DNA of 5,422 nucleotides, taken from IMG/VR virus record IMGVR_UViG_2681813182_000003; one strand, 5' to 3'. Positions 11 to 5,422 of the stretch are shown here, piece by piece. The notes beneath the pieces were generated by a model that was not told where the DNA came from, made no database searches, and saw only the letters and a program-made list of their open reading frames with translations. Position 1 is the stretch's first letter. The number at the start of each line of letters is the position of its first letter. The stretch is from a virus. Its lineage: Duplodnaviria > Heunggongvirae > Uroviricota > Caudoviricetes. Both the position numbers and the translations under genes were made by a program.

Positions 11-226
11 ATGTATCAGATGGAAAAAATATCAACAGGCATTGCCTACGGCACCTCCGCCGGCAGTGCCGGCTACTGGTTTTTGCAGTGGTTGGATCAG
101 GTCAGTCCATCACAGTGGGCTGCGATTGGTGTGCTGGGAAGTCTGCTTCTGGGGCTTCTGACTTATCTGACAAATCTGTATTTCAAAATAAGAGAAGACA
201 AGCGTAAGGCTGCGAGAGGTGAATAA
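11..226 (+). CDS. S: Class II holin / pinholin, phage 21 S-like, with dual-start motif (Met1 and Met4)
   Basis: 71 aa. The N-terminus MYQMEK has two in-frame Met codons (11 and 20), like the S21 antiholin/holin pair. Two hydrophobic segments: a Gly/Ala/Ser-rich SAR-like TMD1 ([22 protein letters not shown]) and TMD2 ([23 protein letters not shown]), then a charged C-terminal tail ([13 protein letters not shown]). The stop overlaps the endolysin start (TAATG). Near-identical to my recollection of phage 21 S / E. coli essD. Confidence 0.9.
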
Positions 227-723
227 TGTCGCCATCATTACGCAAGGCTGTTGCAGCTGCTATTGGTGGTGGGGCTGTTGCTATAGCATCTGTGTTAATC
301 ACTGGCCCAGGTGGTAACGATGGTCTGGAAGGTGTCAGCTACATACCATACAAAGATATCATTGGTGTATGGACTGTATGTCACGGACACACCGGAAAAG
401 ACATCATGCTCGGTAAAACGTATACCGAAGCAGAATGCAAAGCCCTCCTGAATAAAGACCTTGCCACTGTCGCCAGACAAATTAACCCGTACATCAAAGT
501 CGATATACCGGAAACAACGCGCGGCGCTCTTTACTCGTTCGTTTACAACGTGGGCGCTGGCAATTTCAGAACATCGACGCTTCTTCGCAAAATAAACCAG
601 GGCGATATCAAAGGCGCATGTGACCAGCTACGTCGCTGGACATATGCTGGCGGTAAGCAATGGAAAGGGCTGATGACCCGTCGTGAGATTGAGCGTGAAG
701 TCTGTTTGTGGGGGCAGCAATGA
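226..723 (+). CDS. R: SAR endolysin (phage 21 R-like lysozyme, T4-lysozyme fold, GH24)
   Basis: 165 aa. N-terminal signal-arrest-release segment rich in Gly/Ala ([20 protein letters not shown]). Catalytic triad at the expected positions E35, D44, T50 ([17 protein letters not shown]). GAGG lies 6 nt upstream of the ATG. Start overlaps the holin stop; stop overlaps the Rz start (ATGA). Confidence 0.95.
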
Positions 724-1184
724 GCAGAGTCACCGCGATTATCTCCGCTCTGGTTATCTGCATCATCGTCTGCCTGTCATGGGCTGTTAATCATTACCGT
801 GATAACGCCATTACCTACAAAGAGCAGCGCGACAAAAACGCAAGAGAACTGAAGCTGGCGAACGCAACCATTACTGACATGCAGCAGAGACAGCGTGATG
901 TTAATGCACTCGATGCTAAATACACGAAGGAGTTAGCTGATGCGAAAGCTGAAAATGAAACTCTGCGCGCTGATGTTGCCGCTGGTCGTCGTCGGTTGCA
1001 CATCAAAGCAGTCTGTCAGTCAGTGCGTGAAGCCACCACCGCCTCCGGCGTGGATAATGCAACCAGCCCCCGACTGGCAGACACCGCTGAACGGGATTAT
1101 TTCACCCTCAGAGAGCGGCTGATGACGATGCAGATGCAACTGGAAGGGGCACAGGAGTATATCCGCACTCAGTGCATTAAGTAG
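720..1184 (+). CDS. Rz: Rz i-spanin (inner-membrane spanin subunit)
   Basis: The track ORF begins at GTG 708, but the ATG at 720 gives [21 protein letters not shown]..., matching the lambda Rz N-terminus as I recall it. N-terminal TM helix followed by a coiled-coil-like periplasmic domain. ATGA overlap with the endolysin stop. Confidence 0.93.
940..1122 (+). CDS. Rz1: Rz1 o-spanin (outer-membrane lipoprotein), embedded in the +1 frame of Rz
   Basis: 60 aa. Signal peptide with lipobox LVVVGC, proline-rich stretch PPPPP, and a lambda Rz1-like sequence. AAGGAG lies 8 nt upstream of ATG 940. Lies entirely inside Rz in another frame. Confidence 0.88.
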
Positions 1185-1226: not shown

Positions 1227-1577
1227 ATGCCATCACTAATCCCACGTGCCTGCCGTAAGCGTGGATGTGCAGGTACAACCACAGACAGTTCGGGTTACTG
1301 CGATAAACATCGCGGTGAAGGCTGGGTGCAGCACCAGCGCGGACTGAGCCGCCACCAGCGTGGCTATGGCTCAAAATGGACGGTGATTCGTGCCCGTATT
1401 CTGAAGCGCGATAAAGGTCTGTGTCAGTTGTGTCTGCGTGTCGGTGTGGTGAGCGAGGCGAAAACCGTCGACCACATCATCCCGAAAGCGCATGGCGGAA
1501 CAGACGCAGACAGCAACCTGCAGAGTCTGTGCTGGCCCTGCCATAAAGCGAAAACAGCGCGCGAACGAATCCGGTGA
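1227..1577 (+). CDS. HNH endonuclease, phage packaging-associated
   Basis: 116 aa. HNH core DHIIPKAHGGTDADSNLQSLCWPCHKAKT with flanking Cys pairs (CQLC ... CWPC) and an N-terminal Cys/His cluster. GAGG lies 5 nt upstream of the ATG. Position immediately upstream of terS is typical of HK97-like packaging modules. Confidence 0.9.
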   Translation: MPSLIPRACRKRGCAGTTTDSSGYCDKHRGEGWVQHQRGLSRHQRGYGSKWTVIRARILKRDKGLCQLCLRVGVVSEAKTVDHIIPKAHGGTDADSNLQSLCWPCHKAKTARERIR

Positions 1578-1659: not shown

Positions 1660-1698
1660 ATACCCGCGAAAAATGAAATTTAACCAGGAGTGCCGCAT

Positions 1699-2193
1699 AT
1701 GGCTGGAACGGCGGGGCGTTCCGGGCGTCGCCCCAAGCCAACGGCGCGCAAGGCGCTGGCCGGAAACCCCGGCAAGCGAGCCCTGAACAAAGATGAACCT
1801 GTTTTTACGCCCATCAAAGGTGTTGAGCCACCAGAGTGGTTCGCTGAAGAAGATCTCCCTCTCGCCACGATCATGTGGCAACTGACAACCAAAGAACTCT
1901 GCGGTCAGGGCCTGCTGTGCGTGACTGACCTGGCGGTACTTGAGCGGTGGTGCGTGGCCTATGAGTTCTGGCGACGTGCCGTGAAAAATATTGCCATACA
2001 GGGCAACACCATCACCGGTGCAATGGGCGGCAGGGTCAAAAATCCGGAGCTGACCGCCAAAAAAGAACAGGAGTCCGAGATGAGCAGCACGGGGGCAATG
2101 CTCGGACTCGACCCCAGCAGCCGCCAGCGTCTGATTGGCCTGGCGGGGCAGAAGAAAGCCACTAACCCGTTTCTGAAAATTATCGAATCATGA
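1699..2193 (+). CDS. Terminase small subunit, P27 family
   Basis: The track ORF begins at GTG 1690, but AGGAG (1686-1690) overlaps that codon and is correctly spaced for ATG 1699. N-terminus [31 protein letters not shown] is typical of P27-family terS. Stop overlaps the terL start (ATGA). Confidence 0.85.
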
Positions 2194-3923
2194 GCCGGAA
2201 ATCTTACCCCAACGTAAATGCTGCAAATCAGTATGCCCGGGATGTCGTGCGCGGAAAGATTGTTGCCTGCCAGTTTGTGATTCAGGCCTGCCAGCGCCAT
2301 CTTGATGACCTGATGGCGGAAAAAAGTAAGTCGTTTCGTTACCGCTTCGACAAGGACCTGGCTGAACGGGCCGCGAAATTTATTCAGCTGTTGCCGCACA
2401 CCAAGGGGGAGTGGGCATTCAAACGGATGCCCATCACGCTGGAGCCGTGGCAGCTATTTGTGATCTGCTGTGCGTTTGGCTGGGTCAATAAAGGCACCCG
2501 GTTGCGCCGCTTCCGGGAGGTGTACACCGAAATCCCCCGTAAGAACGGCAAATCAGCAATCTCTGCCGGTGTTGCCCTGTATTGTTTTGCCTGTGATAAC
2601 GAGTTTGGCGCGGAAGTGTATTCCGGTGCCACGACAGAGAAACAGGCGTGGGAAGTCTTTCGCCCGGCGCGACTGATGTGTAAACGCACACCCATGCTGA
2701 CGGAAGCGTTCGGGATTGAGGTTAACGCCTCAAACATGAACCGTCCGGAGGATGGCGCGCGGTTTGAACCGCTGATCGGCAACCCAGGTGATGGTTCATC
2801 ACCCCACTGTGCCGTGGTTGATGAATATCACGAGCATGCCACCGATGCGCTTTATACCACAATGCTTACCGGGATGGGGGCGCGACGTCAGCCACTGATG
2901 TGGGCCATCACCACCGCCGGGTACAACATTGAGGGGCCGTGCTACGACAAGCGGCGGGAAGTCATCGAGATGCTCAACGGCTCGGTGCCTAACGATGAAC
3001 TGTTCGGGATCATCTATACCGTTGATGAAGGTGACGACTGGACCGGCCCGCAGGTGCTGGAAAAAGCCAATCCAAATATTGGCGTGTCGGTTTATCGCGA
3101 ATTTTTGTTAAGTCAGCAGCAGCGTGCGAAAAATAACGCCCGTCTGGCAAACGTCTTTAAAACAAAACACCTCAATATCTGGGTGTCGGCGCGTTCGGCG
3201 TATTTCAACTTGGTGAGCTGGCAGAGCTGCGAGGATAAATCACTGACCCTTGAGCAGTTCGAGGGGCAGCCGTGCATTCTGGCCTTTGACCTGGCGCGTA
3301 AGCTGGATATGAACAGCATGGCGCGACTTTATACCCGCGAGATTGACGGTAAAACGCATTACTACAGTGTGGCCCCGCGTTTCTGGGTACCGTATGACAC
3401 GGTGTACAGCGTCGAGAAAAATGAAGATCGACGGACAGCCGAACGCTTTCAGAAATGGGTGGAAATGGGCGTTCTGACCGTTACCGATGGTGCGGAGGTG
3501 GATTATCGCTACATCCTCGAGGAGGCCAAAGCGGCGAACAAAATCAGCCCGGTCAGTGAGTCACCCATCGACCCCTTCGGGGCGACCGGGTTGTCACATG
3601 ACCTTGCTGATGAAGACCTGAATCCCGTCACTATCGTCCAGAACTTCACCAATATGTCCGATCCGATGAAAGAGCTGGAAGCAGCGATTGAATCGGGACG
3701 TTTTCATCATGACGGCAATCCCATCATGACCTGGTGTATCGGCAACGTGGTCGGCAAAAACATGCCGGGTAACGATGATGTGGTGAAACCCGTCAAAGAG
3801 CAGGCGGAAAACAAAATCGATGGTGCAGTTGCGCTGATTATGGCGGTTGGCAGAGCCATGCTGTACGAGAAAGAAGACACGCTGTCTGACCACATTGAGT
3901 CCTACGGGATCCGCTCGCTTTAA
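2190..3923 (+). CDS. Terminase large subunit (ATPase/nuclease)
   Basis: 577 aa. Deviant Walker A-like P-loop ([12 protein letters not shown]), Walker B-like hydrophobic run ending in acidic residues (CAVVDEYHE), C-terminal nuclease-like region ([15 protein letters not shown]). Translationally coupled to terS. Confidence 0.93.
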
Positions 3924-3934
3924 CTGAGGTAATT

Positions 3935-4117
3935 ATGATCATGCTGATTCTCGCGCCTCTGGTGGGCGTGCTGGGTGCGCTTTTGCTGGCGTATGGTGCC
4001 TGGCTGATTTATCCCCCGGCGGGTTTTGTTGTTGCCGGGGCGCTGTGCCTGTTCTGGTCGTGGCTGGTGGCGCGATATCTCGACCGTACACGGCAGTCTG
4101 TCGGCGGAGGTAAATAG
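3935..4117 (+). CDS. Hypothetical small membrane protein (60 aa, two predicted TM helices)
   Basis: GAGG (3926-3929) lies 5 nt upstream of ATG 3935. Codon usage looks enteric (CTG, GCG, GTG rich). Two hydrophobic helices ([22 protein letters not shown] and [19 protein letters not shown]) and a basic C-terminus. The stop TAG overlaps the portal GTG (TAGTG), and the portal SD GGAGGT sits in its last codons. Confidence 0.55.
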
Positions 4118-5273
4118 TGTTCTTTTCGGGATTATTTCAACGAAAAAGCGATGTGCCGGTGACCACGCCAGCAGAACTGCTGATGCTATCGGGCTGTCAT
4201 ACGACACCTATACCGGAAAGCGGATCAGTAGCCAGCGGGCCATGCGCCTGACGGCGGTCTATTCTTGCGTCAGGGTGCTGGCAGAGTCTGTTGGTATGCT
4301 GCCCTGCAGTCTCTACAAAATCAGCGGTACCCTGAAAACACGGGCGGTGGATGAACGACTGCATAAGTTGGTTTCGGCAAAACCTAATGGCTACATGACA
4401 CCGCAGGAATTCTGGGAGCTGGTTATTGTCTGCCTGTGTCTACGGGGGAATTTTTACGCCTACAAGGTAAAGGCACTGGGAGAAGTGGTGGAGCTTCTTC
4501 CGATAGATCCGGGCTGTGTGGAACCGAAGCTGAACAGCCAGTGGCAGCCGGTTTATCAGGTGACGTTTCCGGATGGTTCCGTGGATGTGTTGACCCAGAA
4601 TGAAATCTGGCATGTGCGCACCCTGACGCTGGATGGACTTGTCGGGCTGAATCCCATTGCGTATGCGCGTGAGGCCATTTCACTGGCAGCGGCAACCGAG
4701 GAGCACGGTGCCAGGTTGTTTAGTAATGGTGCGGTGACATCCGGTGTGTTGCGTACGGAACAAAAGCTCACGCCGGATGCTTACGAGCGTCTGAAGAAAG
4801 ATTTTGAGGAGTGTCACACGGGGCTTGGCAATGCTCACCGCCCGATGATTCTGGAAATGGGGCTGGACTGGAAGTCGATGGCGCTGAACGCCGAGGACAG
4901 TCAGTTCCTGGAAACCCGCAAGTTTCAGCTGGAAGAAATCTGTCGTCTGTTCCGGGTGCCGTTGCACATGGTGCAGAACACCGATCGCGCCACCTTCAAC
5001 AATATCGAAGAGCTGGGGCTGGGATTTATCAACTATTCACTGGTGCCGTATCTGACCCGCATCGAACAGCGGATCAACACCGGACTGGTACGAAAAAGTA
5101 AGCAGGGCGTTTATTACGCCAAATTTAACGCCGGGGCGTTACTGCGCGGGGATATGAAGTCCCGTTTTGAAGCCTACGCCACCGGGATCAACTGGGGAAT
5201 TTACTCTTCCAATGACTGCCGCGACCTGGAAGATATGAATCCGCGTCCCGGTGGTGTAATGCCGATCAGTTAA
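4117..5273 (+). CDS. Phage portal protein, HK97 family, with a frame change near 4190-4212 (possible pseudogene or sequencing error)
   Basis: GGAGGT (4106-4111) lies 5 nt upstream of GTG 4117. That frame encodes MFFSGLFQRKSDVPVTTPAELLMLSGCHTTP and stops at 4249-4251. The long ORF ending at 5273 is in the -1 frame relative to it and has no ATG/GTG/TTG start downstream of the small ORF before 4242. Its body carries the conserved portal N-terminal motif (AMRLTAVYSCVRVLAESVGMLPCSLY). The track start at TTG 4026 would give an implausible Cys/Trp/Arg-rich N-terminus. Confidence 0.8.
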
Positions 5274-5305
5274 GGATCAGTTGACCGATCCAGTGGCTGT
5301 GTAAG

Positions 5306-5340
5306 AATCCGGAAACGCTCACTTGTTTCCGGATTTTTTT
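5306..5340 (+). terminator. Perfect 11-bp hairpin plus T7 tract (intrinsic-terminator-like) immediately upstream of the transposase ATG
   Basis: AATCCGGAAAC (5306-5316) pairs perfectly with GTTTCCGGATT (5325-5335), with an 8-nt loop. The T-run 5334-5340 abuts ATG 5341. Confidence 0.6.
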
Positions 5341-5422
5341 ATGCACATTGGACAGGCTCTTGATCTGGTATCCCGTTACGATTCTCTGCGTAACCCACTG
5401 ACTTCTCTGGGGGATTACCTCG
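5341..5422 (+). CDS. insG: IS4-family (DDE) transposase, N-terminal fragment (truncated by window end)
   Basis: ATG 5341 opens a reading frame that runs to the window end. The first 27 residues match my memory of IS4 InsG. There is no phage-module context and no conventional SD; the start is buried next to the hairpin. Confidence 0.55.
   Translation, partial: MHIGQALDLVSRYDSLRNPLTSLGDYL

Follow-up and report, generated by a model that had tools for sequence, protein, structure and literature searches.

Two lesions in a putative portal pseudogene of a phiP27/ST64B/e14-related prophage remnant in Shigella sonnei

INTRODUCTION

The HK97-type portal proteins (Pfam PF04860) of phiP27 (NP_543090.1), ST64B (Sb4, NP_700377.1), SfII, SfIV, SfI, and matching Escherichia coli prophages are encoded by continuous genes of 413 to 414 codons, followed by genes for a prohead protease and capsid. 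Upstream, the phiP27/ST64B group has the order HNH endonuclease, small terminase, large terminase, ymfR, and portal, with a conserved Shine-Dalgarno (SD) sequence and a GTG start codon lying over the ymfR stop. The same phage group includes beeE, a shortened portal gene beside ymfR in the defective prophage e14 of E. coli K-12. This gene keeps one frame through the site discussed below and breaks off after some 135 portal-like residues, beside the jayE pseudogene. In Shigella, numerous insertion sequences (ISs) cause pseudogenization and rearrangement (PMC8072062).

Here, we describe a portal locus in a 5,422-nucleotide stretch of DNA (the window) that shares the gene order, the SD sequence, and the GTG over the ymfR stop with the phiP27/ST64B group. 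Compared with that group, the window copy is without one G at 4178|4179 and without everything after codon 380. Among described genes, beeE of e14 comes closest: it likewise lies beside ymfR and shares the GTG/TAG overlap and the N terminus with the window copy; unlike beeE, the S. sonnei copy has a frameshift at codon 21/22 and is cut by IS4 at codon 380. By descent, it is an HK97-type portal gene (PF04860) of the phiP27/ST64B/SfII/e14 group, and we file it as a putative portal pseudogene.

RESULTS

The origin of the window came from an exact look-up of its 577-aa large terminase, which occurs in 4305 index blocks. Ten loci were fetched, and seven of them contain the whole window without a mismatch; one of the seven, CP000038.1, is Shigella sonnei Ss046 (PMC5447701, citing Yang et al. 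2005). The remnant runs in the order RusA, antiterminator Q, ORF6N protein, holin, lysozyme, Rz/Rz1, HNH endonuclease, terminases, ymfR, portal, and IS4. On the left side, an IS3-family element cuts a DnaB-like replication gene (L011, 1-2596, CP000038.1), and no integrase, repressor, or excision genes were seen within 8 kb upstream in CP000038.1. The right-hand context is bamE-recN-nadK-grpE in most strains and raiA-pheL-pheA-tyrA-aroF in others, and in most strains, IS4 is itself interrupted at about position 1120 by an IS3-family element of about 1.33 kb (loci L004-L012 and L015-L020, at about 11068-13832 of the 17.7-kb loci). The two contexts and the interrupted IS4 point to IS-mediated rearrangement between strains. 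The remnant measures about 10 kb, with IS elements on both sides.

Two of the fetched loci have private differences. L010 (CP021144.1) has a 1-base length difference in the region of window positions 4001-4200 and ymfR is not called there, and the small and large terminase genes are split in L018. These are either assembly indel errors or more strain-specific decay.

The features of the window, all on the plus strand, are as follows.

11..1184, +, lysis cassette: holin (11-226), lysozyme (226-723), Rz (708/720-1184), and Rz1 (940-1122); Pfam Phage_holin_2_1, Phage_lysozyme, Phage_lysis, and Rz1
1227..1577, +, HNH endonuclease of the packaging module; Pfam HNH
1690..2193, +, small terminase; Pfam Terminase_4
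2190..3923, +, large terminase, an intact 577-aa open reading frame (ORF); Pfam TerL_ATPase and TerL_nuclease
3935..4117, +, gene for a ymfR-like 60-aa membrane protein between the large terminase and portal genes; ORF and annotation in relatives
4106..4111, +, SD sequence GGAGGT of the portal gene; read directly
4117..4178, +, 5' piece of the putative portal pseudogene, GTG plus codons 1-21, MFFSGLFQRKSDVPVTTPAEL; tblastn high-scoring segment pair (HSP)
4178..4179, +, site of the 1-bp deletion and change to the -1 frame; DNA alignments
4179..4251, +, out-of-frame tail of the GTG-4117 ORF, LMLSGCHTTPIPESGSVASGPCA and then TGA at 4249-4251; ORF 4117..4251
4179..5256, +, body of the putative portal pseudogene, codons 22-380, with the full Phage_portal domain and no stops; tblastn and Pfam
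5257..5422, +, left end of IS4, with a terminal repeat starting TAATGCCGATCAG and the transposase ATG at 5341; identity to an E. coli IS4 copy

The portal gene is divided between two reading frames. The ribosome-binding site GGAGGT at 4106-4111 is the same in phiP27, E. coli A36, and ST64B, and GTG 4117 overlaps the TAG stop (4115-4117) of the 60-aa ymfR-like ORF. The same GTG is annotated as the start in phiP27, E. coli A36, and K-12 e14 beeE, and homologues of 3935..4117 are annotated as YmfR or as a membrane protein in relatives. From GTG 4117, the frame reads MFFSGLFQRKSDVPVTTPAELLMLSG..., in full MFFSGLFQRKSDVPVTTPAELLMLSGCHTTPIPESGSVASGPCA, and stops at TGA 4249-4251, whereas the -1 frame (ORF 4026..5273) carries the portal body, TGKRISSQRAMRLTAVYSCVRV, in which the T codon lies at 4212. 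No ATG, GTG, or TTG occurs in the -1 frame from 4118 to ATG 4242. The SD sequence, the GTG, the stop, the displaced body, and the lack of a canonical start for this body after the upstream ORF are all as a preliminary description of this DNA had reported them.

In tblastn searches of the window with three intact portal proteins, those of phiP27, the E. coli A36 prophage, and ST64B, each protein gave two HSPs. The first covers residues 1-21 in frame +1 (4117-4179; E value, 2e-8), with 20 of the 21 residues identical to phiP27 and A36. The second covers residues ~22-380 in frame +3, ends at 5255, and scores 711 bits; its identity to phiP27 is 94%, counting an overlap before the junction in which the residues do not match. 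By these matches, the two-frame split is genuine and far beyond chance. Two-frame HSPs had been anticipated in the preliminary description, although with a junction near 4190-4212 rather than at residue 21/22, where it falls.

In DNA alignments with phiP27, E. coli A36, and ST64B, the single gap in the window lies between 4178 and 4179. One G is lost, changing CTGGC to CTGC (ancestral CTG GCT); relatives read GAG CTG GCG GAT/GAG GCT, compared with GAA CTG CTG ATG CT in the window. An IMG/VR contig (L021) and a metagenome contig (L022) read GAA CTG GCT GAT GCT, which is the local sequence of the window plus the G, and the two adjoining substitutions are therefore ordinary synonymous polymorphisms. 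The sole lesion at the 5' site is thus a GG pair reduced to a single G. A repaired 23-mer across the site gave one match among viral contigs and one among metagenome contigs, with overall identities of 94.8% and 81.8%; at these identities, we rejected the two contigs as the parent phage, while they confirm the ancestral local sequence. Neither the 35-mer across the deletion nor the repaired 36-mer matched genome contigs, a set that perhaps comprises one genome per GTDB species and would then have no S. sonnei record. The claim that one missing base would restore a continuous protein is borne out by the alignments, but its proposed placement in 4185-4212 is not: the true site is upstream, about 7 to 30 nt from the guessed position, and the example offered (CCTTAT to CCTAT) lies within 4200-4225, which is invariant and gap free in all relatives.

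From 4179 onward, the conserved ADAIGLSYDTY is read in frame +3. Putting the G back gives an open frame of 380 codons with no internal stops, with PAELADAIGLSY as the sequence spanning the junction in a repaired or trans-frame product. The repaired 380-aa translation matches Phage_portal (PF04860) with 359.2 bits over profile positions 2-321 of 321 (score cutoff, 39.1 bits), and the domain occupies residues 47-373 of the repaired protein. The out-of-frame product is PAELLMLSGCHTTPIPESG, and its tail (4179..4251) has no Pfam match. Without the repair, the conserved GTG does not open one unbroken ORF of about 413 codons in the window copy.

Matches to most of the gene occur in more than 1,000 E. 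coli records; those listed are annotated as phage portal protein, and all of them are 1 base longer than the query. In every relative inspected, the extra base is present and the gene runs unbroken for about 413 codons. The repaired window copy of the gene is 92.6 to 92.8% identical to phiP27 and E. coli A36 in nucleotides and 97.4 to 97.6% identical in amino acids, and the repaired ORF compared with both gives a dS of ~0.32, a dN of ~0.013, and a dN/dS ratio of ~0.04. Because the ratio is this low and the ORF is otherwise clean, the divergence probably accumulated while the phage gene still worked. Deletion and inactivation would then be comparatively recent relative to the divergence from other phages.

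The 35-mer across the deletion was found in all 16 S. sonnei loci fetched, which were independently deposited and include Ss046. The 50-mer across the portal|IS4 junction described below was found in 15 of the 16, the sixteenth being a short-read contig that does not extend to this junction. The exact 343-aa product (from ATG 4242 to the IS4-encoded stop) occurs in 1695 index blocks, and it marks both lesions because it is called only with the deletion and the IS4 junction. The locus shows both marks of a genuine, nonartifactual pseudogene: repetition of the lesion in independent assemblies and the presence of more than one disabling lesion.

This recurrence bears directly on whether the frameshift is real. 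Single-base indels are a common assembly artifact, and private indel-like differences occur nearby in two fetched assemblies (4001-4200 in L010 and the terminase genes in L018). Nevertheless, it is very unlikely that the split is a sequencing or assembly error hiding a true extra G and an unbroken 5' portal region: the same allele is present in every one of the independently deposited assemblies, the deletion-dependent 343-aa product recurs across the index, the change is from GG to G with no long homopolymer at the site, and the repaired gene would still be cut by IS4.

Programmed -1 frameshifting occurs in phage structural genes, for example, in the tail assembly chaperone G/GT. The window resembles the G/GT type in having two overlapping frames in a phage morphogenesis gene, and recoding could draw on a 135-nt frame overlap behind a strong SD sequence and a short A AAA A run at 4143-4147. 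Unlike the G/GT type, however, the window is without a slippery site, a stimulatory structure, or a conserved split. A strict X XXY YYZ heptamer is absent from 4117-4251. The longest homopolymer, A5 at 4143-4147, is also found in the intact single-frame relatives. The RNA fold of 4150-4270 has a minimum free energy of -38.1 kcal/mol, compared with a shuffle mean of -40.3 (z, +0.59), and the two-frame layout is seen in no inspected relative. Even a recoded product would lack its C terminus and partner proteins. We consider it vanishingly unlikely that ribosomal frameshifting or transcriptional slippage joins the frames to give a full portal N terminus. With a loose filter, G GGA TTA at 4128 was picked up as a candidate slippery site and was rejected, as it is not X XXY YYZ.

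Of the readings offered in the preliminary description, these results support the first, that a frameshift has made the portal gene a pseudogene in a decaying prophage, with a lineage-specific 1-bp deletion in 16 of 16 assemblies and a lesion at IS4. Its sequencing-error option fades in light of the same assemblies and the second lesion. Its judgment that recoding is much less likely agrees with the absence of a heptamer, structure, and conservation, and it had correctly seen no slippery heptamer. The IS4 cut at 5256/5257 was absent from it.

In the 3' alignment, portal homology ends abruptly at 5256, after ...CCCGGTGGTG. From 5257 (TAATGCCGATCAGTTAAGG...), the sequence matches IS4 in thousands of E. 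coli records, and from there to the end of the window, it is base for base the same as a K-12-type IS4 copy. The cut follows codon 380, so that portal residues 381-413 (33 codons) are missing, and the ORF runs on into IS4 for five codons (VMPIS) before TAA at 5271-5273. The element is IS4 by its terminal sequence, its length of 1426 bp, and a transposase with Nterm_IS4 and DDE_Tnp_1 domains in the S. sonnei loci; L008 and L009 have a full 1426-bp IS4 match at 99.6%. The left end of IS4 has a GC-rich hairpin and then a T-run at ~5306-5340.

The top BLAST matches would place the start of IS4 15 to 19 nt before 5257. We rejected this placement, as an ungapped comparison reduced the extra matches to scattered similarity in the flank. 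The 30 bases before two unrelated IS4 copies (window 5226-5256 and L014 1590-1620) have scattered identity (GCG..GGT..), which may be an IS4 target-site preference or chance.

Beyond the right end of IS4, no repeat of ...CCCGGTGGTG was found as a target-site duplication, and the DNA there is unrelated chromosomal sequence; the control IS4 copy L014 has the direct repeat GCCCGCGTTGGTC. Because the target duplication is missing, a later deletion or rearrangement at this IS4 copy is indicated. In three S. sonnei loci that cover both right-hand contexts, no homology to the 3' remainder of the portal gene, the protease, or the capsid was found after IS4. The head module is therefore kept only in its upstream terminase half, with the prohead protease and major capsid absent. 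The downstream head and tail genes were probably lost through IS4-associated deletion or recombination after insertion.

The gene calls in public records raise a further possibility. In the Ss046 record, the called portal product has 414 aa, begins at TTG 4029, and overlaps ymfR, which is in a different frame; most other assemblies have a 343-aa ORF called from ATG 4242. The 343-aa version retains the entire Phage_portal domain, and a protein starting at ATG 4242 could in principle be made. It might thus be proposed that the -1 frame ORF is expressed alone, from TTG 4026/4029 or ATG 4242, as a shortened portal-domain protein with a retained or new role. We give this proposal a very small chance of being correct. 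The stretch 4026-4117 overlaps ymfR in the other frame, and the translation of 4119-4178 is unlike any portal N terminus, whereas the GTG-4117 frame matches at 20 of 21 residues. Directly upstream of ATG 4242, no SD-like motif was seen in the sequence read by eye. The C-terminal 33 residues are swapped for five IS4-encoded residues, and the protease, capsid, and tail genes are absent nearby. Neither the 414-aa nor the 343-aa gene call reflects the true structure of the locus.

DISCUSSION

We conclude that the locus is almost certainly a portal pseudogene with two independent lesions in a decayed S. sonnei prophage related to phiP27, ST64B, and e14. No result of the analysis speaks against this. 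Ribosomes starting from the SD sequence and GTG 4117 would translate 21 correct codons and then 23 wrong ones (44 in total) before the stop at 4249-4251. The body lies in the -1 frame, where ATG 4242 is the first canonical start. At 5256/5257, the left end of IS4 takes away the last 33 codons, and the other morphogenesis genes are gone as well. We infer that no functional portal is produced from this locus. Every S. sonnei copy has both lesions, so that either may have come first.

It is also conceivable that the 343-aa ORF, the lysis cassette, the HNH endonuclease, and the terminases are expressed and have been kept for host benefit or for interference with phages. If so, portal rings or packaging of superinfecting phiP27/ST64B-like phages could, for example, be poisoned. 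Nothing in this analysis supports such a host-useful set of remnant genes, and we regard it as very improbable.

For the preferred reading, a portal pseudogene in a decayed prophage, the main value is in annotation: the locus should be recorded as one pseudogene with a start at GTG 4117, a frameshift at 4178|4179, and an IS4 cut at 5256. The two lesions could also be used as stable markers of the S. sonnei lineage. As a finding it is ordinary, and public genomes already contain it. It carries little biological weight, being a further case of the well-documented prophage decay and IS-driven gene loss in S. sonnei; compared with the IS-driven gene decay described for Shigella (PMC8072062), it is one more instance and nothing different in kind.

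In this dead prophage, the ORFs for the holin, lysozyme, Rz, Rz1, the HNH endonuclease, and the small and large terminases remain intact. The 60-aa Rz1 lipoprotein gene lies wholly inside Rz in the +1 frame, in the classical layout of embedded spanin genes.
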